Shown here: positions 4,422 through 52,521 of the stretch, piece after piece
Position numbering within the stretch: the stretch's first letter is position 1
Layout of the letters: the number at the start of each line of letters is the position of its first letter
Assembly: GCA_001786955.1 (NCBI GenBank)
Contig: MFUM01000004.1
Coordinates: 4,457-68,456 of the forward strand
Source of the DNA: Candidatus Nomurabacteria bacterium RIFCSPHIGHO2_12_FULL_42_19
GTDB taxonomy: Bacteria; Patescibacteriota; Minisyncoccia; Phycocordibacterales; UBA9973
DNA: 64,000 bases
Direction: 5' to 3'
The notes under the pieces: model-generated
The model's input: the letters and a program-made list of their open reading frames with translations, nothing else
What the model was told of the DNA's origin: nothing
Databases searched by the model: none
Translations under genes and position numbers: made by a program

Positions 4422-5252
4422 CTATATTTCCACTTCCACGAATTTTAACTCCTGAATATTGACCGGGCTGGAAAGCAACGCTTTGGCAAAAGGATTGCGT
4501 GGGTCAGAGATTATCTTTTCAACAACAGCCAAAAGCAGAGAATTAATGCCGGGCAAAACCACCTGATCTCCTTTTTGCAAGATAAAATCTTTAGGCATTG
4601 TCATTTCAAAATTTCCCCCGCCCCGCCCGACAACTTCCATAAAAACATCCCCGCCTGCGTGAGCAGACCGACCCGCAATTATAGCCTGCGTTCTTTCTCC
4701 TGCATTTGAAAACAAAATTACTTTGGAAGAATTGTCATAAGCAAGGCTCACGCGCCCAATCGGCACATTACCTAGGGCAAAAACTATATTCCCCGTTTTT
4801 ACTCCCCTGTTCGTGCCCGTATCAATGATAAGCGTATCATAAGGAGATTGATTCGGTTTGGACAAAATAGCGGATAAAATCATCTTAACCTTTTCGTTTT
4901 TCCCTGCCTTGCCGACAGGCAGACGTCCTAAAATTTCCTTGATTTTTAAATTCTCATCCAAAATAGAATTGTAATTCGCTGTTCTTGCTTCTTGTTCGTT
5001 CAGTCTCAATTTCAAATCTTCATTTTCCCAAAGAAGAGATTTTTTGGAATAAAAATAGGAACCGGCATCTGATAATTTTCCATTTATGTTATTTCCTAAA
5101 ATTAAAACCGGGCGGAAAAGCCATCCGCTCATATAGGACAGCCCGTTAAAAATTCCCGTTCTGAAATAAAATAAAACAATCAAAACAAAAGCGCTAAGCG
5201 CAATATTTAAAAATTTTTTTCTTTTATTTTTTTTATCTAGGAGGTAGCTCAT
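4422..5252 (-). CDS. mreC: rod shape-determining protein MreC
   Basis: N-terminal TM, coiled coil and beta-rich C-terminus, immediately after mreB. The ATG at 5252 is preferred over the TTG at 5264. Confidence 0.7.
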   Translation of the reverse strand: MSYLLDKKNKRKKFLNIALSAFVLIVLFYFRTGIFNGLSYMSGWLFRPVLILGNNINGKLSDAGSYFYSKKSLLWENEDLKLRLNEQEARTANYNSILDENLKIKEILGRLPVGKAGKNEKVKMILSAILSKPNQSPYDTLIIDTGTNRGVKTGNIVFALGNVPIGRVSLAYDNSSKVILFSNAGERTQAIIAGRSAHAGGDVFMEVVGRGGGNFEMTMPKDFILQKGDQVVLPGINSLLLAVVEKIISDPRNPFAKALLSSPVNIQELKFVEVEI

Positions 5253-8398: not shown

Positions 8399-9214
8399 AT
8401 GTCTATTCAAATCACCACAGAGCAAATAAAAGGGCTCCGCGATATGACTGGCATTTCGGTAATGCAATGTAAGCGCGCCTTGGAAGAAGCCGAAGGCGAT
8501 ATAAAAAAAGCGCTGGCTATCTTAAAAAAAACAAGCTCGGATATTGCGCTTAAAAAAGTTAATCGTGAAGTTAAAGACGGAAAAGTTTGCATTAAAACAG
8601 GAAACCTGCCTCCTGCCCGCGCAGGCGGGGCGCAGGCAGGTAAAAAAGCAGTCTTGGTGTCTTTGCGCTGTGAGACCGATTTTGTCGCCAGAAATGAAGA
8701 CTTCGCTAAGCTGCTGGAAAATCTTGCGGAAAAAGCGATAAAAGTCGGAGTAGAAGAAATGAAAAAGGAGGCCAAAGACATGATTGATGCTATAATCCAG
8801 AAAACCGGAGAAAATATCCAGCTTGGCGACACATATGAAGTAAATGGAGGTATTTTGGGAAATTACGTGCATAATAATAAGACTGGAGTTATCGTAAGCT
8901 TGACAGGGGGTGATGCGGAACTTGCAAAAGATATAGCCATGCACATAACTGCCATGAAGCCGGAATATATTTCGCAAGACGAAATAACAGAAGATGCCAG
9001 AAAAATAATGAAAGAAATTTTCGAAAAAGAAATAGCCAGTATGGACAAGCCTGCGGAAATAAAAGAGAAAATGCTTCTCGGAAAAATGGCGGCCTATTTC
9101 AAAGAAAAAACCCTGCTTGACCAGGCATTCATAAAAAACGGGGAAGAAACAGTGGGCCAGCTCCTGGAAAAAGCCAAGGCAAAAATAAAAGAAGTAAAAG
9201 CTTGCTTAATATAA
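8399..9214 (+). CDS. tsf: elongation factor Ts
   Basis: LRDMTGISVMQCKRALEEAEGDIKKA (UBA-like N-terminus), CETDFVARNEDF, HITAMKPEY. Confidence 0.9.
   Translation: MSIQITTEQIKGLRDMTGISVMQCKRALEEAEGDIKKALAILKKTSSDIALKKVNREVKDGKVCIKTGNLPPARAGGAQAGKKAVLVSLRCETDFVARNEDFAKLLENLAEKAIKVGVEEMKKEAKDMIDAIIQKTGENIQLGDTYEVNGGILGNYVHNNKTGVIVSLTGGDAELAKDIAMHITAMKPEYISQDEITEDARKIMKEIFEKEIASMDKPAEIKEKMLLGKMAAYFKEKTLLDQAFIKNGEETVGQLLEKAKAKIKEVKACLI
8605..8640. repeat. family B GC-rich palindromic insert (in frame in tsf)
   Basis: CCTGCCTCCTGCCCGCGCAGGCGGGGCGCAGGCAGG encodes LPPARAGGAQAG. It shares the GCGCAGGCAGG core with 35110-35131, 39984-40020 and 49558-49585. Confidence 0.7.
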
Positions 9215-14213: not shown

Positions 14214-15950
14214 TTATTTACGATTATTTTTAATATTCTCTTTTTTCTTATTCAATTCATTTATTTCCTTCAAAATCTTTTTACCTATTTCCTCATTAGA
14301 CGTTTGTCTTAATTCCAGCATTTTCTTGCTTAACTCTTCATTAATATTTTCTTCTTCAAGATTCAGAAACATCTCCGTTATGCTATTTTCTAATTTTTCG
14401 TTGTTCGTATAAAATACTTCTGCTTCGAATATAAGATCTTGTTTGACAACTTCATACTTTTTATAAACTTCTCCTAATTTTTCAAAAATTGCCTTAAAGT
14501 CTATAGCGGACGTTGGACGTCCGAGTTCCGGACGTCCAACGTCCGCTAAGCTTTGCTGCCAAAGAGCGATGCCCAAGAGTTTTCGCTCTATGTAATCTTT
14601 TCTGTACATCTTGGTTAAGCTCTCTCCCGCTTCCTTAATTTCTTCTTTTTCATATCTGAACTCTTGCTCAATTTTTTTTAAATCATCCTGTAATGCATTT
14701 TGAGATATGCCCGAAAGGTCGCTAATCTTTTTTATAAAATGCATTTTTTCTATCGAGCTTTCGAGCGCATTTACAAACGGTAATATTGTGCCTTTTATTT
14801 CCCTACCGGCCTTACGGGTGTCATTGCTATAATTTTTTAAAACTTTACTTAAAAGAAATTCTATAACGTGTTTAGAGTTTTTAATGGCTTCGCGCCAGGC
14901 ATCCGAACCCGTCTTCCCAATCAAATCCGCCGGATCGACACCATCAGGCATATCCACCACTTTTACATCCATCCCCAAAGAAAGAGCGATTTTGCCGGCA
15001 CGAATGGTCGCACTTGCCCCCGCCTTATCAGCATCAAAAGCAAGCACTAGATTCTCCGATAGGCGCCGCACCAGTCCTAAATTGCTTACAACATTTTCTT
15101 TTGAAACAGTAGAATCCGATAAAGCTGTGCCGGATGTCGCGATTGTGTTTTTATATCCCGCTTGATGCGATAATATCAAATCCATCTGACCTTCCACTAA
15201 AACAGAGAAGTTGTTCTTGCGGATGGAATCCTTAGCCTTATCAATTCCGTAAAGCACCGCATTTTTGCTGAAAATGGGCGTCTCGGGAGAGTTTAAATAT
15301 TTCGGTTCTCCTTCCCCTGTAATTCTTCCCGAAAACGCTATAACTCTTCCGCTTGAATCATTCATGGGAAACATAATTCTATTGCGAAAACGATCATAGT
15401 ATCCTTTCTCCGTTTTTTTAATTAGCCCGGCACGCTCTATTTCTAAATCACTAAAACCTGTCAACTTCAAGTGTTCATAAAGCGTCCGCCAGTCATCCTT
15501 CGCAAATCCAATACCAAAATCTTTGATTGTTTTTTCGCTCAGTCCTCGAGATTTTAAATATTCTATTTGTTTCGTTTCTAAGTTAGAAATAAAGAACTTC
15601 TCTGCTTTCTCCATCGCCCTGTATAATTTTTCTTTTTCGCTTTCCGCTTCTTTCATTTCTTTGCTGTAAGCCTTAAGAGGCACTCCGGCCCTATCTGCAA
15701 GAAGTTTTAATGCGCCTTTAAAATCAAGCCCTTCAAATTCCTCGACAAAGGTAAAAATATCACCCGACGCCCCGCAGCCAAAACAGTAATAAGTGCCGCG
15801 GTCGGGAGAAATGAAAAACGAAGGGGTTTTTTCATTGTGGAACGGGCATTTCGCCTTCAGGTTTACGCCTGTCTTCTCGAGCTTTATATAGGAAGAGACT
15901 ACTTCTTCAATCGATAGCCTCTCCTTAATTTTTTGTACGGGGGAATTCAT
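14214..15950 (-). CDS. dnaG: DNA primase
   Basis: Zinc finger [11 protein letters not shown]...CFGCG and a TOPRIM domain ([16 protein letters not shown]). Confidence 0.95.
14506..14546. repeat. family D perfect 18-bp inverted repeat, in frame in dnaG
   Basis: GCGGACGTTGGACGTCCG-agttc-CGGACGTCCAACGTCCGC encodes [14 protein letters not shown]. Confidence 0.7.
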
Positions 15951-25145: not shown

Positions 25146-27167
25146 ATGAAGGAATCTAAAAACAAATTGCAAGGTATTATTTCCATCTCTTCAAAAGGCA
25201 CAGGCTATGTGGCAACCGGAGAAGTGAAGAATAAGGGCCAGGACCCGGAAATTGATTTCCAGCATTTAAATACCGCCCTGCACGGAGATATGGTAGAGAT
25301 AATCTTGCACCCGAAAGGTAAAAATCGCCAAACTGCTGAAGTTTCAAAAATAATATCGCGCGCAAAAATGAATTTCGCGGGAGTTCTGGAAGAAGAAAAC
25401 AAAATGTTCTTCCTGAAACCGGACGATACAAAAATGTATACAGATATTCTAATCCCAACCAAGTTTTTAAATAATGCGAAAGTTGGACAAAAGGTTTTTG
25501 TGGAAATAATTTCATGGAAAGATCCCCACAAGGCTCCGGAAGGAAAAGTAATAAAAGTTTTAGGCCGTCCGGGAGACAATGATACTGAAATGGAAAGTAT
25601 TGCGATAGAAAAAGGCTTTGATGCGAAACTTCCGCATAAAGTGGAAGAAGAAGCAAGGAAAATAAAGCAAAACGGCATTAAAGAAACCGACTATGCCGGA
25701 CGCAGAGATTTTCGCAAAACCCTGACCTTCACTATTGACCCCTCGGATGCGAAAGATTTTGATGATGCGATATCTTTCAGATTCCTCCCCTCCTTAAATA
25801 AGGAGGGGGCAGGGGGTGGTAATTCAAAAGACCACCCCGCCTCCGGCACCCCTCCTAAAAAAGGAGGGGAAGAGCAATATGAAGTCGGCATACACATCGC
25901 CGATGTCTCGCATTATGTAAAAATCGGCAGTGCTTTAGATGAAGAAGCGCGAGAAAGAGGAACTTCGGTATATTTGGTAGATAGGACGATACCAATGCTG
26001 CCGGAAACGCTTTCTAATGATTTGTGCTCTCTGGTGCCAAATAAAGACCGGCTTACTATGAGCGCAGTATTTATCATAGATAAAAATGCTCATGTAAAAA
26101 GCAAATGGTTCGGGCGCACGGTTATACATTCAAAAAAAAGATTTACTTACGAAGAAGCCGAGGAGTTAATAAAAAAATCCGCTGCGCCGTTCCATAAAGA
26201 ACTTTTTATCTTGAACAGCTTGGCAAAAAAATTAACCGGGGAAAGATTTGCGCAGGGCGCAATATCGCTTGACCAGGAAGAAGTAAAATTTGTTTTGGAT
26301 AAAAATGGAGTGCCGTTGAAAGTAATAAAAAAAGAGCGCGGCGATTCAAACAGGCTGATTGAGGAATTTATGCTCCTGGCAAATAAAAAAGTGGCGGAGG
26401 TCTTGTCTCCAAAAAATATAAAGGGTGTGAAAGATGAAGGCGTATCCATATACCGAGTGCACGATCTGCCGAGTAAGGAAAAAATGGCCGATCTGGCGTT
26501 TTTTTTGCGAAGTTTGGGACATAGAGTCTCCTTGCAGAACGGCCTTATCCCGACATATGAAATAAATAAGCTTCTAGAGAGTTTGGCCGGCAAAAATGAA
26601 GAAGATACGGTGCATCGCGCAGTTATCCGTTCTATGGCTAAAGCGCTTTATTCCACCAAAAATATCGGGCATTACGGTCTGGCTTTTCAATATTATACTC
26701 ACTTCACTTCCCCGATTAGGCGCTATCCGGACATCATGGTGCACAGACTTCTGGAAAAATTCCTCTCTGGCAAAAAAATAAAAAAGGAGGATTTAAAAGA
26801 GAAATTAATCGAATATGAAAAAATCGCCCTAAATGCATCCGAACAGGAAAAACGCGCCGCAGATGCCGAACGAGCTTCCATAAAATATAAACAAGTGGAA
26901 TATATGTCCAGATATCTGGGAAAAAGCTTCGACGGGGTAATCAGCGGGATAACCGAGTGGGGCATGTATGTGGAAGAACTAGAGACAAAATGCGAAGGTT
27001 TGGTGCGGGTACGTGATATGAATGACGATTTTTATATTTTCAATGAAAAAAAATTGGAATTAACCGGACAAAAAAAGAAAAAAAAGTACAGGCTCGGCGG
27101 CCGTGTCAAAATAAAAGTAAAATCGGTTGATTTGGAGAGAAAAACGATAGATTATATATTGACATGA
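25146..27167 (+). CDS. rnr: ribonuclease R
   Basis: RNB domain motifs (TIDPSDAKDFDDAIS, HIADVSHYV, YSTKNIGHYGLA..YTHFTSPIRRYPD) and a C-terminal S1 domain. The 24954 extension is rejected. Confidence 0.9.
   Translation: MKESKNKLQGIISISSKGTGYVATGEVKNKGQDPEIDFQHLNTALHGDMVEIILHPKGKNRQTAEVSKIISRAKMNFAGVLEEENKMFFLKPDDTKMYTDILIPTKFLNNAKVGQKVFVEIISWKDPHKAPEGKVIKVLGRPGDNDTEMESIAIEKGFDAKLPHKVEEEARKIKQNGIKETDYAGRRDFRKTLTFTIDPSDAKDFDDAISFRFLPSLNKEGAGGGNSKDHPASGTPPKKGGEEQYEVGIHIADVSHYVKIGSALDEEARERGTSVYLVDRTIPMLPETLSNDLCSLVPNKDRLTMSAVFIIDKNAHVKSKWFGRTVIHSKKRFTYEEAEELIKKSAAPFHKELFILNSLAKKLTGERFAQGAISLDQEEVKFVLDKNGVPLKVIKKERGDSNRLIEEFMLLANKKVAEVLSPKNIKGVKDEGVSIYRVHDLPSKEKMADLAFFLRSLGHRVSLQNGLIPTYEINKLLESLAGKNEEDTVHRAVIRSMAKALYSTKNIGHYGLAFQYYTHFTSPIRRYPDIMVHRLLEKFLSGKKIKKEDLKEKLIEYEKIALNASEQEKRAADAERASIKYKQVEYMSRYLGKSFDGVISGITEWGMYVEELETKCEGLVRVRDMNDDFYIFNEKKLELTGQKKKKKYRLGGRVKIKVKSVDLERKTIDYILT
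25784..25870 (+). repeat. family A element (modules Y then X), in frame in rnr
   Basis: CCTCCCCTCCTTaaatAAGGAGGGGGCAGGGGGTGGTaattcaaaagACCACCCCGCCTCCGGCACCCCTCCTaaaaaAGGAGGGG. A 30-nt stretch is identical to pheS 40782-40826. Confidence 0.8.
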
Positions 27168-29100: not shown

Positions 29101-31374
29101 TTATTTCGCAATTTGAGTAGCTTCTTCGAATTTTACCGAGAGAAGTTTGGAAGCTTCGTTGGAGCCGATGGTGACGCCGTAAAGAATTCCGGCTCTGGAC
29201 ATCGTTTCGCGGTTGTGGGTAACGACGATAAGCTGGGATTGCTTGGAGAGCTTCTCCAGCATATCCCCGTATTTTCGGGAGTTTGCTTCATCCAGCGCCG
29301 CATCCGTTTCGTCCAGCACCAAAAAAGGCGGCGGATTGACTTGCGACATAGCGAAAAGAAGGGCAATGGAAGTAAGCGACCTTTCTCCCCCGGAGAAAGC
29401 GTGAAGTTCCTTGACTTTCTTGCGCGGCAAAGAGACATTGATTTCTATTCCTTTTTCAATAACGATGTTCTCATCATCTTCTGATTCCCCCATTTCATCG
29501 TCATCTTCATTGATTTCATCAACTTTTTTCTTCTTAGTTTCAATAATAGAAATAGATCCGTGTCCGCCGCCAAACATTAATGAAAAGAATTCTTGAAACT
29601 CTACGTTGATTTTTTTGACACCTTCCTTGAATTCCGTATCTATTTTTTCCTTCAAATCAGCAATAAGTATAACCAGAGATTCAATGCTTTTGGATAAATC
29701 TTCCATTTCTTTCGTTAAAAATTGATCCCGCCCGGAAACTTCTTTATATTCCTTTATCAATTCCGCTCCGTTGCCCAGGCCCGTATCTTCTAATTTTATT
29801 TTTATGCGCTCAATTTTTTTCTTTTGGTCTTCTTGGTTATGCAATTCCCCGTTGTTTTCAATTTTATAGTCCTTATAAGAAAAAACTTCCCGTCCAATCA
29901 GGATTTCCCCTTCTTTTATCTCATTTTCAAAAGATTCGGCCCTATTTTTCAAATTCCCTTCTTTGATAGCCACAAGTTCCAGAGCGGAAGACAATTCTTG
30001 TTGTCTGACTCTCCAGGCAAATTTCTCCCGTTCAAGATCGCGTAAGGCCTCCATTTCCTTGTTTATTTCTTGTTTCAGTATCTCTATTGATTTGGCAATT
30101 TCTTTTTCTTTGCTTTCAATCCCTTTCATTTCTTCCAAGATTGCCTGCTGGGTTTTTTTTAGTTTTTCAATTTCTAAATTGTGGCTGGATTCATCCTTGT
30201 CATTTTGAGAGAATTTTTTCAAAATATTCTTAATACTCTCCAAAACGGGCCTAATCTCCTCAATACTTTCTTTTAAAAAAGCCAAATCTATAGAATTATT
30301 TATCTCACTGATTATGGCTTTGATTTCTTCCTGTGAAATTTCTATAAATAGGGATTTCTGTTCTTTCCTGCGTTCTTCCATTTCAACCATTCCCTCTATC
30401 CGCCCAAGCTTGCGTTCTATTTCACTTTTTACTCCGCGAAGGGAGTTGAGGCCTTCCTCAATTTTTCTCAATTCTTCTATTTTACCCCCACCCATCCTCC
30501 CCCTTATTAAGGGGGAGGTGTCAGAATGACGGAGGGGGTCGTTGTTTTCAACAATAGAAATTTTACCAGTTACATTTTTAAGTTCATTTGAAAGCTTGTT
30601 CCTTTCAGATGATAAATCGGCTTTCTCTTTCTCCAAAAAGATGCTTTCTTTCTTCAGATATTCCCCGTAAAGAGCCGTCAGCTCTGTTTGCATTTCTTTT
30701 GTTTTTTCAAATTTTTCCACCTGTTTCTTGAGAAAGTTAAGATGTGGGGCATTTTCCCGCCGCATTAAGGAAACCTCTTTCATGTTTTCATTCGTCCGTT
30801 CAAGTTTTCTCTCGCTTTCTTTTATCTTATATTGATAAATTTTAAGTCCCAAGGCATCTTCTACCATTTCTTTTTTTTCTCTTGCATTGGCGCTCAAAAT
30901 CCTGTCTGTCTCGCCCTGAGAAATAATGTGATGCCCGGAAGAACCTATGTTGACCGAGGCCAGCAAATTGTGAATATCCTTCAGTCTGACTTCTGTGCCA
31001 TTTAAAATATATTTATTCAACCCATCGGAAAAAACCTCGCGGGAAATTGAAATAACATCATAATTCAAATTAATATTCTCTCCCCCGTCATTGGAAAGCT
31101 TGAAAATTTTGTCGGAATTATTGAAATAGATGGTGACGGACGCCCGTGAGGCTTTTGGCAGATTTTTAGAACCTTTAAAAATGAGATCCGAACCGCCTTT
31201 TCCGCGCATGGATTTCATGGATTGTTCGCCCAAAACAAAGCGGATGGATTCCACCACATTGGATTTTCCGGATCCGTTCGGGCCGACAATGGAAACAATG
31301 GGATTTTCAAACTCTAAAACAGTTTTTTGGGCAAAAGACTTAAAACCATTTAGCTGGAGTGTTTTGAGCCGCAT
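29101..31374 (-). CDS. smc: SMC-like chromosome segregation ATPase, short (757 aa), no recognisable hinge
   Basis: Walker A GPNGSGKSN, signature LSGGERSL and Walker B LVLDETDAALD. The middle is coiled-coil. Confidence 0.8.
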   Translation of the reverse strand: MRLKTLQLNGFKSFAQKTVLEFENPIVSIVGPNGSGKSNVVESIRFVLGEQSMKSMRGKGGSDLIFKGSKNLPKASRASVTIYFNNSDKIFKLSNDGGENINLNYDVISISREVFSDGLNKYILNGTEVRLKDIHNLLASVNIGSSGHHIISQGETDRILSANAREKKEMVEDALGLKIYQYKIKESERKLERTNENMKEVSLMRRENAPHLNFLKKQVEKFEKTKEMQTELTALYGEYLKKESIFLEKEKADLSSERNKLSNELKNVTGKISIVENNDPLRHSDTSPLIRGRMGGGKIEELRKIEEGLNSLRGVKSEIERKLGRIEGMVEMEERRKEQKSLFIEISQEEIKAIISEINNSIDLAFLKESIEEIRPVLESIKNILKKFSQNDKDESSHNLEIEKLKKTQQAILEEMKGIESKEKEIAKSIEILKQEINKEMEALRDLEREKFAWRVRQQELSSALELVAIKEGNLKNRAESFENEIKEGEILIGREVFSYKDYKIENNGELHNQEDQKKKIERIKIKLEDTGLGNGAELIKEYKEVSGRDQFLTKEMEDLSKSIESLVILIADLKEKIDTEFKEGVKKINVEFQEFFSLMFGGGHGSISIIETKKKKVDEINEDDDEMGESEDDENIVIEKGIEINVSLPRKKVKELHAFSGGERSLTSIALLFAMSQVNPPPFLVLDETDAALDEANSRKYGDMLEKLSKQSQLIVVTHNRETMSRAGILYGVTIGSNEASKLLSVKFEEATQIAK
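30484..30540 (-). repeat. family A module X copy, in frame in smc
   Basis: The coding strand GACCCCCTCCGTCATTCTGACACCTCCCCCTTAATAAGGGGGAGGATGGGTGGGGG encodes DPLRHSDTSPLIRGRMGGG. Confidence 0.65.
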
Positions 31375-32110: not shown

Positions 32111-33041
32111 CCGCCTTGCTAATTAACGGGATAATGTCGTTATAAATACGGAGTTCCGGGATTGCGGAAAGCTCAAACCATCTTGCCCCATCCAGTCCGC
32201 CGGATTTTTCCAAGGCAAGTTCTCTGTATTCGCTCTTGGCTAAAAAATAAACCACCTTTTTCAGGCTTTTTCCTTTTTCTGGATGCGTTGCCACATATTC
32301 GTTTTCCCCCAATTTTTCTTCCATTTTAATATCAAGCCCGATTTCTTCCTTTATTTCTCTGATTGTCGCTTCTTCTTCGTTTTCTCCCTTTTCAATACTG
32401 CCCTTGGAAATAGTCCAATAGCCGAAAACATCATGCACTAATGCAAAAAAGACTTTGTTATTCTTTTTCGCATAAACAAGCGCTCCGCCTTTTTTCTCAA
32501 CTGGCAATTTTGCAGTATCCGGCACTTCTTCGTGTTTTTTCTTTCTGCTGACTTGTTCTTTTCCGGGCTCGCCTATTTCTTTATAAACCGCGCCTAAGAC
32601 GCCGTTGACGAATTTACCGGAATTCTCTCCGCCGAAAGTTTTTGCCAGTTCTATCGCTTCATTGATAGCCACTTTCGGAGGCACTTCCTTCCTGTCGCCA
32701 AAAAGGAGCTCCGTTAGGCCGATTCTCAGAATATTCCTGTCAACAACAGAAATCTTATCTATCGGCCAATCAGGCGCGGCCTTTTCTATGATTTCGTCAA
32801 TCATTGCGCGCTTCTTTAACACTTTATCCATAAGCGAGAACACAAAAACATCATCCTCCAACCCTGGGGCAAATTCTTTTAAATTTCTTTTGAGAATATT
32901 ATTTATCTCTCCGGAAATATCGGAATTGCTGATTTTCTTATCATCGGACCCGCCTGCGCTCGACTGTGGCGAGGCGAGCAGGAAATCCCACTCAAAAAGC
33001 GTCTGAAGAACTATTGATCTGGAAAGGTGCCTATTTGCCAT
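32079..33041 (-). CDS. nusB: NusB - NUDIX hydrolase fusion protein
   Basis: The N-terminal NusB fold ([13 protein letters not shown]...[27 protein letters not shown]) is followed by a Nudix box [23 protein letters not shown]. Confidence 0.8.
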
Positions 33042-33432: not shown

Positions 33433-35208
33433 ATGGAAAAGACTGAAAAACTAGGCAATTTAAGGCATACTCTGGCTCACCTGCTCGCATCGGCCATCGG
33501 AGAGATTTATAAATTTGATAAAATCAAACTTACCCTCGGTCCGGCCATAGATAATGGCTTTTATTATGATATTGATTTTTGCGGCGAAAAAATGACCGAT
33601 GCGGATTTGAAAAAAATTGAAGATAAAATGCGGAAAAATTTGCCTAAATGGACAGAATGGGAACATAAAGAAATAAGCAAGGACGAAGCGTTAGAATTTT
33701 TCAAAAACGAATACAAGGCGGAATTAATAAATGAAATCGCCCTACGCGGAGAGAAAATTACTACTTATACTTGCGGAGGATTTACTGATTTATGCCGTGG
33801 TGGACACTTGGCGCATCCGTCTAAAGAAATAGATCCGGATTCTTTCAAGCTGGACCGCGTGGCCGGCGCTTACTGGCGAGGAGATGAGAAGAACAAAATG
33901 CTCACCCGAATTTACGGATTGGCTTTTGAGACCAAAGAAGAACTGGATGCATATTTAACACAAAGAGAGGAAGCAGAAAAAAGAGACCATCGAAAGCTCG
34001 GACAAGAGCTTGATATTTTTATTTTTGATGACGATGTCGGCCCGGGACTTCCGCTTTGGTTGCCAAATGGCGCCGTGATTATTGAAGAACTGGAAAAATT
34101 AGCAAAAGAAACGGAAGAAAAAGCCGGATATGTTCGTGTGCGCACTCCCCATATTGCCAAAGAATCAATGTATAAAAAAAGCGGGCATTTGCCTTATTAT
34201 GCAGACAGCATGTATTCGCCGATGGACTGTGAAGGAGAAAATTACTATCTCAAAGCGATGAATTGCCCGCACCATCATAAAATTTTTGCCGCGCGGCCAA
34301 AAAGCTATCGTGATTTGCCCCTGCGGCTTGCCGAATATGGCACAGTCTATCGTTATGAAAAATCCGGAGAACTTTTCGGGCTTATGCGCGTACGCTCCCT
34401 CTCAATGAATGACGCGCATATTTATTGTTCGGAAAAACAATTCGCGAATGAATTTCGCGCAGTTAATGAAATGTATCTTAAATATTTTAAAATTTTCGGA
34501 GTTGAAAAGTATATAATGCGATTCTCTACCCATGATCCGAAAGAACTTGGAAAAAAATATGTGGACGAACCGGAGCTCTGGCTGAAAACGGAAAAAATGG
34601 TCCGTGATGTTCTGATTGAATCAAAAATTCCATATGTTGAGGTGCCGAATGAAGCGGCTTTTTATGGGCCAAAAATAGATGTGCAAGTCTGGAGTGCTAT
34701 TGGGAAAGAGTTTACTCTGGCCACCAACCAGGTTGATTTTGCAGTGCCTAAGCGTTTTGATTTAACATTCACAAATAAAGAAGGCAAGGCAGAAACTCCG
34801 CTTTGTATCCATCGTGCGCCGCTCGGCACCCATGAAAGATTTATCGGCTTCTTGATTGAGCATTATGCCGGCATCTTCCCTCTTTGGCTCTCGCCAGTGC
34901 AGGTAAAAGTAATTCCTGTCCGCACAAATCATAATGAATATGCGAAGCAGATTTTTGAATTATTAAAAGAAAATAACATCCGTGCGGAATTGGATGATAG
35001 CGATGAAAACCTCGGCACAAAAGTCCGCGATGCAAAAAATAAAAAAATGCCTTACTGGATAGTCATCGGCGACAAAGAAATAGAAGCAAAAAAAGTAACT
35101 CTTGAATCCCGCCTGCCTGCGCAGGCAGGCGACGCTGGACAATTAGGACAAATTTCAAAAGAAGAACTCGTCGCAAAACTTGTGGCCGAGGTCAAAATTA
35201 AAATATAA
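33433..35208 (+). CDS. thrS: threonyl-tRNA synthetase lacking the N-terminal TGS domain
   Basis: Starts at the editing-domain HTLAHLL motif. Class II core and a C-terminal anticodon-binding domain. TATAAA lies 6 nt before the ATG at 33433. Confidence 0.93.
   Translation: MEKTEKLGNLRHTLAHLLASAIGEIYKFDKIKLTLGPAIDNGFYYDIDFCGEKMTDADLKKIEDKMRKNLPKWTEWEHKEISKDEALEFFKNEYKAELINEIALRGEKITTYTCGGFTDLCRGGHLAHPSKEIDPDSFKLDRVAGAYWRGDEKNKMLTRIYGLAFETKEELDAYLTQREEAEKRDHRKLGQELDIFIFDDDVGPGLPLWLPNGAVIIEELEKLAKETEEKAGYVRVRTPHIAKESMYKKSGHLPYYADSMYSPMDCEGENYYLKAMNCPHHHKIFAARPKSYRDLPLRLAEYGTVYRYEKSGELFGLMRVRSLSMNDAHIYCSEKQFANEFRAVNEMYLKYFKIFGVEKYIMRFSTHDPKELGKKYVDEPELWLKTEKMVRDVLIESKIPYVEVPNEAAFYGPKIDVQVWSAIGKEFTLATNQVDFAVPKRFDLTFTNKEGKAETPLCIHRAPLGTHERFIGFLIEHYAGIFPLWLSPVQVKVIPVRTNHNEYAKQIFELLKENNIRAELDDSDENLGTKVRDAKNKKMPYWIVIGDKEIEAKKVTLESRLPAQAGDAGQLGQISKEELVAKLVAEVKIKI
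35110..35131. repeat. family B perfect 22-bp palindrome, in frame in thrS
   Basis: CGCCTGCCTGCGCAGGCAGGCG encodes RLPAQAGD. Confidence 0.7.
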
Positions 35209-38412: not shown

Positions 38413-40269
38413 TTACCGCACTTGCCAACCATTATTCTCCTTGATTTTATTGGTTATTTGAGTCATAACTGCATTTATTTCCGCATCTGTAAGAGTCCTA
38501 TCAAAAGACTGGAAAACTACCCTAAAAGCATAAGAGATTTTATCGTCCTTTTTAAACTCATCAAAGAGTTCCGGGCCACGAATTGCAAGACTTCCGGCAT
38601 TATTTTTTATAATTTTTTCTACATCTTTACTTTTAACTCCCTCCGGCACCCAGACGGCAATATCGCGTGCGATAAAAGGAAACAAGGACCACATCTTAAA
38701 AGCTCCGCCTGTGTGCTTTTGCGAACGGTGACGTTGCGAAGCAGGATATTCCTGAGCAAAAGCATCAGGCGAGGCTGATTTACAAAATTCTTCAAGACTC
38801 ATTTCTTTTACTTCTTTTTTATTTCCATAAGCCACATTCATTTCTTCCCCGCTCTTTTTAAACACCGTTCCAATTTCAAAAATTTTTATTTCGTCCATCC
38901 CCAACAAAGGCACGTTGAGTTGGTTTAATTTCAAACTTTCCTTCAGTCCGTCAGTCAGATTCGTCCGCAAAAATTTTTTATCCGAAGCGCTCTGCATCAC
39001 TTCCACTTCCCCACTATTACAAAAAGTATAAGTCATTACTTCACTATATCCTTCGCCGAGCAATTTATTTCTCGCCCAGGAAATCTTCGCATAAGTTTCA
39101 TTTACTTTTGTTTTAAAATTAATTTTTGGTATTTTTCCTTTTACTTTGTCATAGCCAATAATCCTTCCGATTTCTTCTGCCATATCTTCCTCAATTACTA
39201 AATCAAGCCGCATCGGTGGCACGGTGATTACGTATTCTTCTCCCCCTGCTAAGGGGGAGTGCCCATCGGGCGAGGGGGTCTTTGTATATTCAAAGTTATA
39301 TCTTTTCAAAATATCTTCCACTTGAGACACAGAAATGTCCAAACCAAGAATTTTTGAAATTTTTTCCACCGAGAAAGAAAGCTTTCTGATCTCCTGTTTT
39401 TGGGGATAGACATCGACAATGTTTTCAAAAATAGCTTCCGGACACATTTCTAAAATAAGCGCCGATAATTCCAGCATAGCGTGCGGGCCAAGTTCCGGAG
39501 ATAAATCGTTTTCAAAGCGCTTGCGTGCGTCCGTAAATATATTCAAAGCCTGCGCGGTTTTTCTTACGGAAGTTGGATTAAAATTAGCAACTTCCAGAAT
39601 TATATCTTTTGTATTATTATCTACTTCCGCAATTTTCCCGCCCTTGATGCCAGCAATGGCTAAGACATTCTTATCGTCCGAAATGACCATATTTGAAGAT
39701 TTGAACTTTATTTCTTTATTGTCCAGGGTGGTCATCTCCTCGCCGTCTTTACCGTTTCGGACAATTATGTCGCCCTGTATTTTATCCAAATCAAAAGCAT
39801 GTGCGGGCTGACCGCAATCAAACATCACAATATTCGCCGCATCTACCACATTATTTATGCTTCTCTGCCCTATTGACTCCAGATGCTTTATGACCCATTC
39901 CGGACTGGTGCCAATTTTAATATTCTTTACAATTCTCCCCATATATCTTCTACATTTATCTGATTGGACATCAATTTTTAATTCTGCCTGCCCCGCCGGA
40001 GCCTTGGGCGCAGGCGGGGGAATTTTATACTTCGGAGCAGGATCAACATACTTTATATTTAAAAGTGAAGCGAGTTCACGCGCCACGCCCTGGTGGCTAA
40101 GTAAATCATGCGCGCGGTTTGGCAAGATTTTCAAATCAAAAATATTATCATCCCCTTTTTTCTCTAAACTCTCAACTTCACAAAGATGGTAATTAAAAAC
40201 ATCCACAAATTTTTCTGCATCAGGTGCTTCCGGTATATACCATTTGAGCCAATTGTAAGAAATCAACAT
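38413..40269 (-). CDS. pheT: phenylalanyl-tRNA synthetase beta subunit (short form)
   Basis: B3/4, B5 and FDX-ACB-like C-terminal regions. Directly downstream of pheS. Confidence 0.9.
   Translation of the reverse strand: MLISYNWLKWYIPEAPDAEKFVDVFNYHLCEVESLEKKGDDNIFDLKILPNRAHDLLSHQGVARELASLLNIKYVDPAPKYKIPPPAPKAPAGQAELKIDVQSDKCRRYMGRIVKNIKIGTSPEWVIKHLESIGQRSINNVVDAANIVMFDCGQPAHAFDLDKIQGDIIVRNGKDGEEMTTLDNKEIKFKSSNMVISDDKNVLAIAGIKGGKIAEVDNNTKDIILEVANFNPTSVRKTAQALNIFTDARKRFENDLSPELGPHAMLELSALILEMCPEAIFENIVDVYPQKQEIRKLSFSVEKISKILGLDISVSQVEDILKRYNFEYTKTPSPDGHSPLAGGEEYVITVPPMRLDLVIEEDMAEEIGRIIGYDKVKGKIPKINFKTKVNETYAKISWARNKLLGEGYSEVMTYTFCNSGEVEVMQSASDKKFLRTNLTDGLKESLKLNQLNVPLLGMDEIKIFEIGTVFKKSGEEMNVAYGNKKEVKEMSLEEFCKSASPDAFAQEYPASQRHRSQKHTGGAFKMWSLFPFIARDIAVWVPEGVKSKDVEKIIKNNAGSLAIRGPELFDEFKKDDKISYAFRVVFQSFDRTLTDAEINAVMTQITNKIKENNGWQVR
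38708..38769. repeat. family E hairpin element, in frame in pheT
   Basis: TGCTTTTGC / GCAAAAGCA arms around the core TGCGAACGGTGACGTTGCGAAGCAGGATATTCCTGAGC. Compare trmD 23908-23974. Confidence 0.65.
39237..39280 (-). repeat. family A module X copy, in frame in pheT
   Basis: The coding strand GACCCCCTCGCCCGATGGGCACTCCCCCTTAGCAGGGGGAGAAG encodes TPSPDGHSPLAGGEE. Confidence 0.65.
39984..40020. repeat. family B-like GC-rich insert, in frame in pheT
   Basis: CTGCCTGCCCCGCCggagccttgggcgcaGGCGGGGG encodes PPPAPKAPAGQAE. Confidence 0.55.
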
Positions 40270-40280
40270 AAATTAAGTTA

Positions 40281-41072
40281 TTAAAACTGATTGAGGCGTA
40301 AATCTCCCTGATAAAAAAGTCTAACATCCGGAATACCCCATTTAATCATAGCAATACGGTCCAATCCTCCGCCGAAAGCAAAACCTTGGTATTTTTTAGG
40401 GTCCAAGCCGCAATTTTTGAGTACATTTGGGTGTAAAACACCTGAACCCATCATCTCAAGCCACTTCCCTTTGAACTTGGCGAAAACTTCCAGAGATGGT
40501 TCGGTAAAAGGGAAAAAACTGGGGCGAAATTCTACCTCCACATCATCACTCAACATTTTTTTGTAAAAATGGGTTAATACGCCCTTCAAATCAGCAAGGG
40601 AAACATTTTCTCCCACCATTGCTCCGTCTATCTGATAAAATTGCATTTCGTGCGTTGCATCCGTAGCTTCGTTGCGGAAAACTTTTCCGATGGAAATAAA
40701 AGCGGCTGGCAATCTGCCGTCTTTGCCCGCTTGCTCAATCGCGCGGGCGGTTACGGTCGTCGTATGTGTTCGCAACACAGATTTTGAATTACCACCCCCT
40801 GCCCCCTCCTTATCAAGGCGGGGAGGATTCTTTTCTCCTCCTGCCTGAGGAGGAGTGCCCGAAGGACGAGGTGGTTCTTTTATCCAAAATGTATCCTGCA
40901 TATCCAGCGCCGGATGGTCTTTCGAAAAATTCAAGGCGTAAAAGTTATACCAGTCGCTCTCCAGCTCCGGCCCGGTCGCGATTTCAAAACCAAGCTCCGA
41001 AAAAGCCCGATAAGCCTCCTCGGCTAACAGAGAAAGCGGATGTATTGTGCCCTTTTTTATGTCTTCGTTCAT
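40281..41072 (-). CDS. pheS: phenylalanyl-tRNA synthetase alpha subunit (catalytic core only)
   Basis: Class II motifs (LRTHTT, FRNEATDATH, GFAFGGGLDRIAM). The N-terminal coiled coil is absent. Confidence 0.9.
   Translation of the reverse strand: MNEDIKKGTIHPLSLLAEEAYRAFSELGFEIATGPELESDWYNFYALNFSKDHPALDMQDTFWIKEPPRPSGTPPQAGGEKNPPRLDKEGAGGGNSKSVLRTHTTTVTARAIEQAGKDGRLPAAFISIGKVFRNEATDATHEMQFYQIDGAMVGENVSLADLKGVLTHFYKKMLSDDVEVEFRPSFFPFTEPSLEVFAKFKGKWLEMMGSGVLHPNVLKNCGLDPKKYQGFAFGGGLDRIAMIKWGIPDVRLFYQGDLRLNQF
40782..40875 (-). repeat. family A element (modules X then Y), in frame in pheS
   Basis: The coding strand ACCACCTCGTCCTTCGGGCACTCCTCCTCAGGCAGGAGGAGAAAAGAATCCTCCCCGCCTTGATAAGGAGGGGGCAGGGGGTGGTAATTCAAAA encodes PPRPSGTPPQAGGEKNPPRLDKEGAGGGNSK. 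Confidence 0.8.
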
Positions 41073-44818: not shown

Positions 44819-47014
44819 TTATAACATACTTAAAAATTCTTTCTCGCTTAATATTTTTACACCCAGCTTTTCGGCAACTTTAAGCTTGGAGCCCGGGTCC
44901 GCTCCGGCTACGATATAGGAAGTATTTTTTGAGACGGAACCCGCGACTTTCCCTCCGAGAGCCAGGATTCTTTCTTTAGCAATTTCTCGGGACATTTGGG
45001 AAAGCGTCCCGGTCAAAACGAAATGTAATTCGGTAAATTTGTCGGCTTTCTTTTTTTCCGCTCTTTCCACGATTACGCCATTTCTTTGCAATTTTTTTAT
45101 GAAATTCAAATTATTTTTATTATTAAAAAAATCATAAACGCTTTTTGATACAGCCGGGCCGATGTTTTCTATACTATCTATCTCAGCAAGGACTCCCCTT
45201 GCTGAAGTTATTAATTTTTCCAGAGTGCCAAAGTGTAGCGCTAAATCTCTTGCTGTTTCCTCCCCCACATGCAGGATTCCGAGCGCCCACAGAAAGCGTG
45301 AAAAAGGGATTTTCTTTTTATTTTTTATTTCATTGATTATGTTTTCCGCCGATTTTTCCCCAAAGCGTTCCAGGAGCGCTATATCTTCTTTTTTAAGGGT
45401 GAAAATGTCGGCTGCGTCGGTAATGAGCCCTTCGTCCTTGAATCTTCTCAGTATTTTCGGGCCTAATTCATAAATTTCAAAGACAGAAACAAAATGCTCT
45501 AAATACCTTTCGTTTTTTGCCGGGCATTTAGGATTGCTGCAATAATGAGCGACAGAGATATTCTCCAGCTCGCAAGATTTCTGAGTCGCGTAAGTCCCAC
45601 CCGGTACCCCGGGAAGGGTCAAGCGCGAAGAAATCTCGTGAGCCGAAGAATCCCCCATCTTTTTCTTCCTAACTTTTCCTCCGCAGGCCGGGCATTTGTC
45701 CGGCATTTTGAATTTTTTTTCTTTGCCTGTCCGCATCCGAATCAGCACCTCCACTACTTTCGGTATCACATCGCCGGCTTTTTCTATCACGACCGTATCC
45801 CCGATACGCAAATCAAGGCGCTCTATCTGGTCCATATTATGGAGAGTAGCCTTGGACACCCGGGAACCCGCCACCAGCGTCGGCTCAAAAAGAGCGAGCG
45901 GTGTCAATACACCGGTACGCCCGACATTTACCTTTATATCCTTTACTATTGTTGTCGCTCTTTCCGCCGGATATTTGAATGCCACCATAAAGCGCGGCGC
46001 CTTGCCGACCACCCCTAGTGTCTCCTGTAATTTCAAATCGTCCACCGAGACAACGACGCCGTCCGTGCCGTAGAGAAAATCGGGCCTGATTTTTTCAAAT
46101 TTCTTTATGAAAGTAAACACTTCATTCATATTAGCGCACAGAGCCTCCAATTTCTCAACTTTAAATCCAATCCTGCGGAGCATTTGATGTTTTTCGGAGT
46201 GGGTTTGCATAGCCGAATCATGAATTTTCTGAGTCGCGTAAGTCCCACCCCGTACTCGGGGAAGGGTCAAGCGCGAAGAAAATTCATGATTCGGCGTAGC
46301 CTCGGCTATATCGTAAGCAAAAAAATCCAATTCCCTTTTGGCGGCTAATTTTGGATCCAGCTGCCGCAAACTTCCTGCCGCGGCATTTCGGGTATTGGCA
46401 AAAAGGGGTTTTCCTTTTTTCTCATTTTCTTTATTCAATTTAACGAGCATTTCTTTGCTCAAAAGCGCTTCTCCGCGGATTTCCAGGTGCGGAAGGTATG
46501 GTTTTTGGAGAAGAAGTGGAATTGAATGTATGGTTTTGAGATTTTGGGTTATGTCTTCCCCAATTAATCCGTCTCCTCTCGTTGCGCCGCGCATAAACTT
46601 GCCATTTTCATAAACAAGCGAAACTGCCAACCCGTCAAACTTGACTTCGCAAAAATAATTAAATTTCGCGCGCGCAGGTAAAAGCTTTTTGATTCTTGTT
46701 TCCCACTCATATAATTCTGTCTCACTAAAAGCATCATTAAGAGAAAGCATGCGGGTTTTGTGCTGAACTTTTACAAATTTATTAAGCGGTTTGCCGGCTA
46801 CTCTGTTTTCCGGAGCATTTAAATCGTTAAATTCGGGGTATTTTTTCAAAAGCTCTTTAAGCTCGTGAGTGAGAGAATCGTAAACATCGTCGGTTACACC
46901 GGGGGCGTTTTGGGTATGATATAAATCACGCAAACGCGCGATTTCTTTTCGTAATTTTTTTACCCGCTTGGATTCGGCGAGGCTGGTTCTTTTTTTATCT
47001 TCCACCTCTTTCAT
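44819..47014 (-). CDS. ligA: NAD-dependent DNA ligase
   Basis: Adenylation motif CEVKFDGLA, OB fold, Zn finger CPACG...CSNPKCPAK, HhH and BRCT domains. About 60 aa longer than usual because of two inserts. Confidence 0.95.
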   Translation of the reverse strand: MKEVEDKKRTSLAESKRVKKLRKEIARLRDLYHTQNAPGVTDDVYDSLTHELKELLKKYPEFNDLNAPENRVAGKPLNKFVKVQHKTRMLSLNDAFSETELYEWETRIKKLLPARAKFNYFCEVKFDGLAVSLVYENGKFMRGATRGDGLIGEDITQNLKTIHSIPLLLQKPYLPHLEIRGEALLSKEMLVKLNKENEKKGKPLFANTRNAAAGSLRQLDPKLAAKRELDFFAYDIAEATPNHEFSSRLTLPRVRGGTYATQKIHDSAMQTHSEKHQMLRRIGFKVEKLEALCANMNEVFTFIKKFEKIRPDFLYGTDGVVVSVDDLKLQETLGVVGKAPRFMVAFKYPAERATTIVKDIKVNVGRTGVLTPLALFEPTLVAGSRVSKATLHNMDQIERLDLRIGDTVVIEKAGDVIPKVVEVLIRMRTGKEKKFKMPDKCPACGGKVRKKKMGDSSAHEISSRLTLPGVPGGTYATQKSCELENISVAHYCSNPKCPAKNERYLEHFVSVFEIYELGPKILRRFKDEGLITDAADIFTLKKEDIALLERFGEKSAENIINEIKNKKKIPFSRFLWALGILHVGEETARDLALHFGTLEKLITSARGVLAEIDSIENIGPAVSKSVYDFFNNKNNLNFIKKLQRNGVIVERAEKKKADKFTELHFVLTGTLSQMSREIAKERILALGGKVAGSVSKNTSYIVAGADPGSKLKVAEKLGVKILSEKEFLSML
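45568..45642 (-). repeat. family C hairpin element copy 1, in frame in the ligA Zn finger (75 nt)
   Basis: Outer arms GCTCGCAAGATTTC/GAAATCTCGTGAGC. Core TTCTGAGTCGCGTAAGTCCCACCCGGTACCCCGGGAAGGGTCAAGCGCGAAGAAA. Confidence 0.8.
46212..46295 (-). repeat. family C hairpin element copy 2, in frame in the ligA adenylation region (84 nt)
   Basis: Perfect 17-bp arms GCCGAATCATGAATTTT/AAAATTCATGATTCGGC. The core differs from copy 1 at 3 positions. Confidence 0.8.
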
Positions 47015-49238: not shown

Positions 49239-50063
49239 CTAAAAAAGACGCAATTCAAAAAGAAACGCCAAGAGCGCGCCTAAAACCAGATATGGAGCAA
49301 AGGGAATTTCGCTTTTTATTCCGTATTTTTTAGAAAAAACAACAAGAGAAAGACCGACAATGGCCCCAAGCCAGAAAGCGACCACAAGGCCGGAGAATGC
49401 GCGCGCGAGCCCAAGCAGCCATCCCAAGCCGACTGCCAGTTTGGCATCCCCCAGCCCCATCCAAGTTCCGGAAGACACGAGCCAAAATAAATAAAAAGGT
49501 AAAGCAATCAAGAAGCCGGACAAAAATTCCAAAATTGAAGGCATGTGCGGATAAAAACCTGCCTGCGCCCAGCCTGCGCTGGCAGAAGACAGGCCAGAAT
49601 TGTTAAAAAAGAATAAGCCGATAAAACCAAGAGCGCCTAAGGCAAAAGCGAGCGAGTCGGGGATTATTTTATGCCGGAGGTCGTAGACGGCAATAACCAC
49701 CAGAAGCGCGAATATCGCGGCATAATAAGCATAAGCGATAATAAATGCGGGAGTAAAAAAACTAAACTGTCCGCCCAGGGCGGAAAACTTTAAAAAGAGC
49801 GCCGCAAAAATCAGGCCGGTCGCCAGCTCGACCAAAGGATAGGAAATTGAGATTCTTGTTTTGCAGGTTCGGCATCTACCTCCCAAAACAAAAAAACTTG
49901 CGAGCGGGACAAGCTCATACCAGCAAAGAGTATTCTGACAGGACATACAGGCGCTTCTCCCGCCGAAGGATCTCTCGGTGTTCAGCCGGGCAATGACAAC
50001 ATTTAAAAAACTTCCGATAATCAGGCCAAAAAAAAAGAAAATAATTGTAACTACAATGATCAT
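49239..50063 (-). CDS. pilD: prepilin peptidase (A24 family)
   Basis: N-terminal Cys motif CMSC...CRTC and a catalytic Asp context (GLGDAKL). Confidence 0.9.
   Translation of the reverse strand: MIIVVTIIFFFFGLIIGSFLNVVIARLNTERSFGGRSACMSCQNTLCWYELVPLASFFVLGGRCRTCKTRISISYPLVELATGLIFAALFLKFSALGGQFSFFTPAFIIAYAYYAAIFALLVVIAVYDLRHKIIPDSLAFALGALGFIGLFFFNNSGLSSASAGWAQAGFYPHMPSILEFLSGFLIALPFYLFWLVSSGTWMGLGDAKLAVGLGWLLGLARAFSGLVVAFWLGAIVGLSLVVFSKKYGIKSEIPFAPYLVLGALLAFLFELRLF
49558..49585. repeat. family B GC-rich insert, in frame in pilD
   Basis: CCTGCCTGCGCCCAGCCTGCGCTGGCAG. pilD peptide SASAGWAQAG. Confidence 0.55.
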
Positions 50064-51163: not shown

Positions 51164-51190
51164 CCCGCCTGCTCCCATAGGGCGGGCAGG
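51164..51190. repeat. family B-like hairpin, intergenic between pilC and pilA
   Basis: CCCGCCtgctcccatagGGCGGGcagg. Confidence 0.45.
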
Positions 51191-52450: not shown

Positions 52451-52473
52451 AGAAATTTAAATTAACTTTTTGA

Positions 52474-52516: not shown

Positions 52517-52521
52517 TCCTA

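Follow-up and report, generated by a model that had tools for sequence, protein, structure and literature searches.

A 64,000-nt stretch of the genome of Candidatus Nomurabacteria bacterium RIFCSPHIGHO2_12_FULL_42_19 (contig MFUM01000004.1; hereafter the window, meaning the whole stretch that was analysed) contains a set of short GC-rich palindromes built on one unit, CCTGCCTGCGCAGGCAGG, a perfect palindrome of 18 bp that is identical on both strands. We consider it probable that these sequences constitute a mobile or recently mobile palindromic insertion family, and the 18-mer looks like an undescribed miniature selfish DNA element; the literature searched yielded no description of the 18-mer, of its 11-mers in such a context or of the peptide LPAQAG, which it encodes in one of its frames. 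The observations are precise recent insertion, identity of multiple copies within and between genomes, absence of target duplication, filtering of the copies by reading frame and protein loop, and a series of decayed copies. The combination of extreme brevity, perfect symmetry, lack of duplication and sharing across phylum-level lineages is unusual for selfish in-frame palindromic repeats.

The GC content varies between 37 and 47% along the window (~41% in the genome of this ultra-small bacterium, a member of the Parcubacteria within the Patescibacteria). Eight copies of the element, corresponding to ~1 per 8 kb, were located, at least six of them in open reading frames (ORFs):

4650..4667, minus strand: decayed 18-nt copy in mreC, TCTGCTCACGCAGGCGGG, with 5 mismatches to the 18-mer, encoding SAHAGG in a PACAGR-type frame whose codons for Pro, Cys and Arg have changed
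4902..4922, minus strand: 21-nt variant in mreC, CTGCCTGTCGGCAAGGCAGGG, with the same outer stem CTGCCT/AGGCAG and another centre, encoding LPVGKAG
8605..8640, plus strand: 36-nt composite in tsf, CCTGCCTCCTGCCCGCGCAGGCGGGGCGCAGGCAGG, encoding LPPARAGGAQAG
32949..32982, minus strand: ~34-nt variant at the N-terminus of a NusB-NUDIX protein (nusB), CCTGCTCGCC...GCGCAGGCGGG, encoding an 11-letter peptide
35112..35129, plus strand: exact 18-bp palindrome in thrS, CCTGCCTGCGCAGGCAGG, encoding LPAQAG
39984..40021, minus strand: ~38-nt rearranged variant in pheT, CCCCCGCCTGCGCC-CAAGGCTCC-GGCGGGGCAGGCAGA, encoding PPPAPKAPAGQAE
49558..49593, minus strand: 36-nt composite in pilD, CCTGTCTTCTGCCAGCGCAGGCTGGGCGCAGGCAGG, encoding LSSASAGWAQAG
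51164..51190, minus strand: variant of 27 nt, CCTGCCCGCCCTATGGGAGCAGGCGGG, in the spacer of pilC and pilA, with a TATAAT box on one side and the start of pilA on the other

The initial annotation of this DNA had recognized the tsf sequence exactly as it stands, and the sites that it had placed in thrS, pilD, pheT, nusB and the pilC-pilA spacer are all present, with minor corrections of their coordinates. To these we add the two copies in mreC, the recognition of the 18-bp perfect palindrome as the unit, the finding that one and the same 36-nt composite occupies tsf and pilD, and the spread of the unit over many lineages of the Candidate Phyla Radiation (CPR). It had also been claimed that the motif recurs beyond chance, and its count indeed lies far above a composition-matched expectation: GCGCAGGCAGG with at most one mismatch occurs 9 times in the window compared with 0.47 expected, none of 100 dinucleotide-preserving shuffles of the window attained 9 matches, and the hairpin pattern CC[TC]GCC..GGC[AG]GG has 9 matches compared with 0.085 in the shuffles.

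The variants range from 21 to 38 nt and retain the outer stem CCTGCC/GGCAGG (or CCCGCC/GGCGGG) around other centres or loops (21, 27 and ~34–38 nt); their arms are made from CCTG or CCCG units and their centres are GCGC or GCCGGC. The 36-mer of tsf has the architecture CCTGCCT + CCTGCCCGCGCAGGCGGG + GCGCAGGCAGG, and that of pilD differs from it at 4 positions. All occurrences of the 9-mer half-site GCAGGCAGG in the window fall within palindromic elements, the few 8-mers apart from exact copies are found mainly in variant hairpins, and no locus showed the two 9-mers as the ends of a longer element. Stable hairpins are predicted for single strands of the 20-mer and of the two 36-mers; the RNA folding energies are −12.7 kcal/mol (20-mer) and −27.6 and −23.4 kcal/mol (36-mers of tsf and pilD), and the two 36-mers share the same fold. 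The predicted fold agrees with the nested hairpins previously proposed for tsf.

The length of the 18-mer is a multiple of three and its frames read PACAGR, LPAQAG and CLRRQ, without a stop in any of them. The earlier statement that all coding copies yield an A-Q-A-G peptide holds for tsf, thrS and pilD and approximately for pheT (AGQAE); it fails for the right arm of the nusB copy and for one mreC copy, which are read in another frame (AGG). The peptide resembles the sortase signal LPXTG, but we dismiss this likeness as an accident of translation, given that EF-Ts and ThrRS are cytoplasmic and that the T-G positions are lacking.

Comparison with orthologues provided empty counterparts of the occupied sites in thrS, tsf, pilD, the pilC-pilA spacer and both positions in mreC, bearing out the view that the segments are embedded in their host genes and are not ancestral. 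In thrS, all 119 of the 119 orthologues retrieved read LESR|DAGQLGQ, and LESR[LPAQAG]DAGQ is found in the window alone; the orthologue P0122, which is 89% identical, has no LPAQAG segment. At the DNA level, the empty site in L235 (L numbers denote 8-kb pieces of other genomes) reads GAATCCCG|CGATGCTGG and the filled site in the window reads GAATCCCG-CCTGCCTGCGCAGGCAGG-CGACGCTGG, so that the insertion comprises exactly 18 nt and is accompanied by no target duplication. The predicted ThrRS peptide across the insert is ...ESRLPAQAGDAGQ..., and a few distant ThrRS proteins have decayed LPAGAG- or LSTQAG-like segments displaced by one residue. Judged from these alignments, the thrS copy is a recent insertion.

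In tsf, the approximately 12 additional residues noticed previously before the CETDFVA block are residues 70–81 of EF-Ts, ten residues upstream of CETDFVA, and the predicted peptide across the insert is ...GNLPPARAGGAQAGKK... The majority of the orthologues are 259 aa long, lack the 12 residues and read ..IKT-xx-KK.., whereas ~25 orthologues have LPAQAG or decayed forms of it (LPAQTG, LPAGKAG, LPGQTG and others) at the same place; several of them have the form LPxGKAG, comparable to LPVGKAG of mreC. A metagenome scan for tsf relatives with very general peptide patterns returned mostly distant EF-Ts, the useful loci being L130–L132. Empty DNA sites read ACA GGA AAC|AAA AAA in L131 and GAA GGC AAA AAA in L128, L129 has an 18-nt copy with one mismatch, L132 has a decayed copy, and L127 has 36 nt identical to those of the window. 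In an AlphaFold model of EF-Ts (mean pLDDT confidence 88), the insert forms the low-confidence tip of a beta-hairpin between the strands 60–69 and 82–91, and the solved structures of EF-Ts and ThrRS show gaps at the tsf and thrS segments in the alignment.

At the pilD site, the 12 residues are missing from the majority of orthologues and several carry LPAQAG; the 12-residue form occurs in two, whose inner stem CCAGC/GCTGG is also that of the window. The 6-residue (4650–4667) and 7-residue (4902–4922) segments of mreC are both absent from L128 and L129, and the homologous spacer of L238 (ATTAAAAAT|TAGTCGAAA) has no counterpart of the spacer copy. In nusB, three close relatives have three different versions of the element at the same codon, among them a perfect 18-mer (LPAQAG) in L109 and, in L235, a further variant of similar length. 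The pheT segment, a plausible candidate for an insertion, sits in a linker of variable length, as judged from representatives of at most 57% identity.

The exact 18-mer was also sought in a collection of one genome per species comprising 596 Gb, and it was found in at least 120 stretches compared with ~9 expected at uniform composition. Among the matches listed, 71 of 120 are labelled as CPR and represent more than 15 candidate phyla (WWE3, Microgenomates, Woese-, Gottesman-, Beckwith-, Shapiro-, Dojka- and Saccharibacteria as well as Kaiser-, Yonath-, Uhr-, Wildermuth-, Zambryski-, Magasanik-, Staskawicz- and Nomurabacteria and Paceibacterota). A further 15 belong to Bacteroidota; a single Sphingobacteriales metagenome-assembled genome (MAG) accounts for seven of these loci, with eight copies. 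Another 10 are low-GC MAGs with unconfirmed labels of Gammaproteobacteria or Pseudomonadales; 16 have other labels, most of them with high GC content and compatible with chance, and 8 are labelled only as "bacterium". The host proteins elsewhere are unrelated to one another (FtsW/RodA-like, SecF, DnaG, UvrD-like, NusB and others). In the 81 low-GC loci among these matches, each picked for one exact copy, a Hamming scan for near copies detected 5 additional exact copies and 3 that deviate at a single position; no additional copy had two or three mismatches. Mildly decayed additional copies are thus few, and recent or maintained copies therefore predominate. Among viral contigs, 25 stretches contain the 18-mer, mostly with 58–67% GC and compatible with chance, and only L215, L224 and L227 are low-GC; they offer no lead towards a phage.

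In MAGs of Bacteroidota the 18-mer lies inside longer mosaic intergenic repeats with common flanks, resembling bacterial interspersed mosaic elements (BIMEs). Such loci are L018, L039, L077, L083, L089 and L108 in the Sphingobacteriales MAG bin43, L010 and L049 in Saprospiraceae, and L111 and L118 in Bacteroidota; examples of their flanks, with pal denoting the 18-mer, are GCGTTAACGAYGGTAGCGG-pal and AAACCCGACAG-pal-TAGCGGATACC.

The copies elsewhere show a bias in reading frame within long open frames and none in non-coding DNA. Among the matches listed, stretches of 600 nt or more without a stop harbour 41 of the 86 exact copies outside the window, and 31 of these 41 are read in the LPAQAG frame (p = 3.7e-8); the exact copies in stretches shorter than 300 nt are distributed over the frames as 10/9/10. 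For the same set, the sequence logo of the flanks of the 86 copies shows only a purine (R) at position −1 and a pyrimidine (Y) at position +1, the R^Y junction being found in 57% of the copies compared with 22% of random positions. Flanking direct repeats of 2–4 nt were at or below the random level in these copies, and neither a requirement for A/T runs nor a strong target was detected.

These observations lead us to propose a non-autonomous, hairpin-forming element that would be copied in trans. Insertion of new copies would be precise and create no target-site duplication; it could happen anywhere in the genome, with purine^pyrimidine steps as the usual site. With a length that is a multiple of three and no stop, an insertion would not break the gene. 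Selection would nevertheless purge most coding insertions, and the survivors would be those in surface loops or turns, where the small, flexible residues of the LPAQAG frame would be tolerated over PACAGR or CLRRQ. Composites such as the 36-mer of tsf and pilD may form when one unit is nested in another, and old copies would decay slowly via point mutation. Our best guess for the chemistry of copying is a single-stranded hairpin intermediate, as with HUH/Y1 enzymes acting on repetitive extragenic palindromic (REP) sequences and on the ends of IS200/IS605 insertion sequences, a chemistry that leaves no target duplication. Spread between lineages would presumably proceed by horizontal DNA transfer.

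Several points weigh against mobility. No transposase, integrase, reverse transcriptase or HUH enzyme was found in the 64-kb window (by Pfam, in 30 window ORFs) or beside paired copies elsewhere (in 8-kb pieces), and the mobilising activity is therefore hypothetical. To our knowledge, every element whose mechanism of transposition has been demonstrated is longer than 18 bases. That the 18-mer is identical in Bacteroidota and in very deeply separated CPR lineages departs from what is usual for host-restricted selfish repeats such as REPs, Rickettsia palindromic elements (RPEs) and GC clusters. No presence/absence polymorphism was seen within the population, in which contigs from six samples are 99.98–100% identical. 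Moreover, the occupancy of the same codon in separate clades of tsf and pilD requires a hot spot or repeated precise loss. Taken together, the constraints of frame, tolerated loop and R^Y junction make admissible positions very scarce in a two-residue beta-turn, which can account for the filling of one and the same codon, in tsf, pilD and nusB alike, in several separate clades.

The conservation of the composites raises a related difficulty. The tsf 36-mers of the window and L127 are identical at 36 of 36 nt (P ~1e-4 to 5e-6), whereas outside the insert the two genes agree at 75% of residues, 48% of third codon positions and 46% of the codons for identical amino acids, and they are not sisters in a neighbour-joining tree. 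This identity also counts against mobile copies that simply decay, as it suggests maintenance or a later shared origin over neutral decay. The pilD 36-mers of three lineages differ at ~14% of positions, which is less than their surroundings yet not zero. Between the tsf and pilD 36-mers there are one compensatory change from C-G to A-U and further changes compatible with G.U pairs; this covariation amounts to a single event and is not significant, as 48 of 500 shuffles reach the observed score.

An alternative explanation, which we regard as unlikely, is that the palindromes are filler left by the repair of DNA breaks. The same GC-rich tail (..CCTGCCTGCGC-3') would be put on both 3' ends of a double-strand break, for example one made by the free-standing GIY-YIG or HNH-like endonucleases that are common in these genomes, and the GCGC centres would pair and be sealed. 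Symmetric tailing would therefore produce a perfect palindrome without target duplication, with arms of CCYG units and varying centres (GCGC or CCGG). It is consistent with the perfect symmetry and lack of target-site duplication, with the CCTG/CCCG arms and the GCGC or GCCGGC centres, and with the lack of a transposase among the Pfam matches of the window ORFs. The 18-mer also splits a 5' fragment of tRNA-Gln in five genomes, where a GIY-YIG gene comes next in L033 and L116 and an HNH-like ORF, recognized by eye, in L043. However, no enzyme that adds this specific sequence is known or was identified, a regular expression for GIY-YIG matched 3 times in ~120 loci and only once near a copy, so that the association with tRNA-Gln and GIY-YIG appears local, and the same 36-mer architecture at two loci fits copying of a template better than synthesis de novo. 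It strikes us as distinctly improbable that selection or molecular drive maintains the 18-mer as a functional DNA signal. The signal might be a binding site of a conserved DNA-binding protein or an uptake sequence of the type IV pilus/ComEC system, on which CPR bacteria are believed to depend; preferential uptake and recombination would preserve its exact sequence and spread it among lineages. Such a signal would be in keeping with the same 18-mer in many CPR classes, the mostly exact copies, the identity of the tsf 36-mers amid saturated synonymous sites, the lack of an associated transposase and the full pilus and ComF-like cluster encoded in the window. It is at odds with an origin by clean 18-nt insertion instead of substitution, and with a density of ~1 per 8 kb where the Neisseria DNA uptake sequence (DUS) and the Pasteurellaceae uptake signal sequence (USS) occur ~1 per kb. 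Nor does it agree with the lack of an excess of solitary half-sites in the window, the decay of many orthologous copies (L132, LPAGKAG and similar), the variable presence among close relatives, the several unrelated palindrome families in the same genes and the multiple copies in a Bacteroidota MAG.

Selection at the level of RNA, with the hairpins acting as mRNA structures in stability, processing, pausing or attenuation, is in our opinion very improbable. The predicted RNA hairpins are stable and both 36-mers have the same fold, they are separated by one compensatory and by G.U-compatible changes, and one copy lies in the 5' leader of pilA; against this, the covariation is the single event equalled by 48 of 500 shuffles, the genes are unrelated and the positions in them internal and arbitrary, close relatives function without the copies, and the frame bias indicates tolerance at the protein level. 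We give hardly any credence to the last explanation, in which there is no discrete element at all, only ancestral low-complexity loops of Ala, Gly and Pro, chance GC-rich runs, or an artefact of assembly or sequencing. The location of the pheT copy in a generally variable linker agrees with it, whereas the counts far above expectation, the exact nucleotide identity across unrelated loci and genomes, the orthologues that lack the segments and the identical sequence in independently assembled contigs of six samples effectively refute it.

The loci with split tRNA-Gln, all from Paceibacteria-type genomes (L033, at 1725–2105, L116, L043, L048 and L044), deserve a separate description. The 18-mer interrupts the 5' fragment between nt 10 and 11 (..TGCCGGGTCG-pal-TCTAATGGTAGGAC..). 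The ORF that comes next in L033 and L116 encodes a small GIY-YIG nuclease (Pfam PF01541; truncated in L116), and the one in L043 has an HNH-like Cys/His motif without a Pfam match. An intact tRNA-Gln follows this ORF in L033, L116 and L043, and follows directly, with no ORF, in L048; in L044 the palindrome splits a full second copy of tRNA-Gln.

To place the proposed mobile family among known systems, we compared it with other short palindromic repeats. RPEs are in-frame palindromic repeats of ~100–150 bp in housekeeping genes (PMC10969869). They resemble the present copies in being in-frame in unrelated housekeeping genes of a small AT-rich genome and in adding a predicted extra peptide compatible with the protein fold (PMC10969869). 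In-frame insertion at fold-compatible positions is what we find in thrS, tsf, pilD and mreC. RPEs differ, however, in comprising about ten families found only in Rickettsia, with a conserved peptide of ~30–50 residues, compared with a perfect palindrome of 18 bp or 6 residues in CPR and some Bacteroidota; the present copies measure 18–38 nt and have no sequence similarity to the Rickettsia families. The GC clusters of yeast mitochondria are short, mostly intergenic GC-rich palindromes that are also polymorphic in-frame in var1, merge into composites and are considered mobile (PMC8811140). The likeness extends to GC-rich palindromes scattered in AT-rich DNA, polymorphic and also in-frame, and to composites such as the 36-mer. 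Unlike our copies, GC clusters are organellar, vary greatly between species, typically measure 30–50 bp and have flanking AG or TAG repeats taken as target duplications, of which we found none. The byp elements of Magnusiomyces are bypassed in translation; the length and frame of the present copies indicate that they would be translated in the ordinary way.

REPs are by definition extragenic; they are imperfect palindromes of 20–40 nt, tagged at one end with GTAG or CGTC, and their specificity is for the REP-associated tyrosine transposase (RAYT) of their own genome (PMC3733652). REPs and the related REPINs share with the 18-mer the character of short, non-autonomous, GC-rich hairpin repeats without target-site duplication, and the Bacteroidota mosaics are BIME-like; in contrast to REPs, the 18-nt palindrome is perfect, the logo of the 86 copies among the matches listed contains no tetranucleotide tag, and about half of the copies lie in genes. 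No RAYT (Y1 HUH) gene was found in the ORFs of the 64-kb window or between paired copies in the 8-kb pieces. Miniature inverted-repeat transposable elements have terminal inverted repeats bounding an internal region, a target duplication and a related full-length insertion sequence, whereas our element has no internal region and no duplication. DUS, USS and the cyanobacterial octamer HIP1 are sequences of 8–12 nt that occur about once per kb and arise via substitution. As short exact clade-wide motifs, tolerated in coding sequences in preferred frames and with no link to a transposase, they resemble the 18-mer, which differs from the definitions of uptake sequences and HIP1 in coming as a discrete insertion at ~one per 8 kb. 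Invasions of organelle genomes by hairpin repeats are described for Volvox, for sponges (repetitive hairpin elements, RHE) and for Haematococcus, where a repeat is common to two genomes, the mitochondrial and the plastid one (PMC7235400, PMC2800124, PMC2670323). These likewise concern selfish hairpin repeats in compact genomes, and differ in that the repeats are organellar, mostly non-coding and longer, whereas the present ones lie in a bacterial chromosome and inside essential genes. Finally, the copies are unlike intrinsic terminators, as the coding copies are internal to genes and the spacer copy has no T-run, although A/T runs adjoin a small number of copies in other genomes (L068, L125), some of which may have been co-opted.

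The 18-mer and its variants are accompanied by other palindromes. A pairwise comparison of 36 window genes with close relatives revealed ~27 window-specific in-frame insertions of at least 4 residues, of which ~10 are GC-rich palindromes of this or other families, including five clean copies of the present one and insertions in dnaG, smc and, twice, ligA. In dnaG (ORF 14214–15950, minus strand), positions 14504–14548 form a 45-nt near-perfect palindrome with 20-nt arms (TAGCGGACGTTGGACGTCCG / CGGACGTCCAACGTCCGCTA) that encodes a 14-letter peptide and is absent from the DnaG of L128, representing a second, unrelated in-frame palindromic family. LigA (ORF 44819–47014, minus strand; 731 aa compared with 682 aa in L239) has insertions at 45557–45643 and 46256–46300 with a common 23-nt core TTTCTTCGCGCTTGACCCTTCCC followed by ..GTAC.GGGTGGGACTT; this is a longer (~45–90 nt) palindromic element of RPE-like size, and Pfam divides the adenylation domain of the protein in two stretches. 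Hairpins of the type CCCTCC/CCCCC-TTAnnAA-GGGGG/GGAGGG occur at 30493–30528 (smc), 25788–25807, 25850–25868 and 40804–40822; the smc copy HSDTSPLIRGRM (hairpin CCTCCCCCTTAATAAGGGGGAGG) is an insertion relative to L235, and a similar hairpin adjoins the 18-mer in L113.

A 16-bp perfect palindrome, TCCGCCAGCTGGCGGA, occurs in unrelated genomes (L072 at 2079, L103 at 7450, L111 at 4962 and L118 at 5470, with variants in L028 and L086), three times within ~100 nt of the 18-mer. The pilT-pilC spacer contains at 52472–52518 an intergenic inverted repeat with 22-nt arms (GACCACAGGTCGGACCTGTGGG / CCCATAGGTCTGATCTGTGGTC). The hairpin CCCGCC-TTAC-GGCGGG at 607–622, with AAAAC/GTTTTG flanks, looks like a terminator or like a relative of the present family with G-type stems. 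Hairpins of the form GGRGGAGTGCCC-nnn-GGRCGAGGKGG are found at 39253–39280 in pheT, where the encoded peptide is ..SPDGHSPLAGG.., and at 40845–40870; they may be the other family of the initial annotation.

The genomes of CPR bacteria, or Patescibacteria, are tiny and are thought to be poor in mobile DNA. If the 18-mer belongs to a mobile family, ultra-short palindromes would colonise these genomes and rewrite loops of EF-Ts, ThrRS, MreC, PilD, NusB and other proteins, and about a third of the lineage-specific in-frame insertions in the window would be such palindromes. LPAQAG-like segments in CPR proteins would then have to be annotated with caution, as derived from the element and not as functional motifs, and the copies would offer a natural marker of recent insertions and of horizontal exchange among uncultured lineages. 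In a published survey of perfect inverted repeats, CPR phyla rank highest in repeat density (PMC13155455). The survey contains no description of this element; its result is in line with palindromes having invaded CPR genomes generally, and the present family would provide an explanation of the high repeat density at the sequence level. The mechanistic question is how an 18-bp palindrome could be copied without target duplication and keep its identity across phyla. As a tentative and bolder possibility, which we would not yet expect to hold, the 18-bp palindrome could be the smallest mobile DNA yet seen: six codons that copy themselves, or are copied, without target duplication, invade essential genes in-frame across CPR and are exchanged between phylum-level lineages and Bacteroidota, possibly by an undescribed mechanism such as integration of a hairpin oligonucleotide or symmetric tailing of a break. 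In that case the 18-mer and its sister families of palindromes would jointly be a major origin of loop insertions in the proteins of CPR bacteria.

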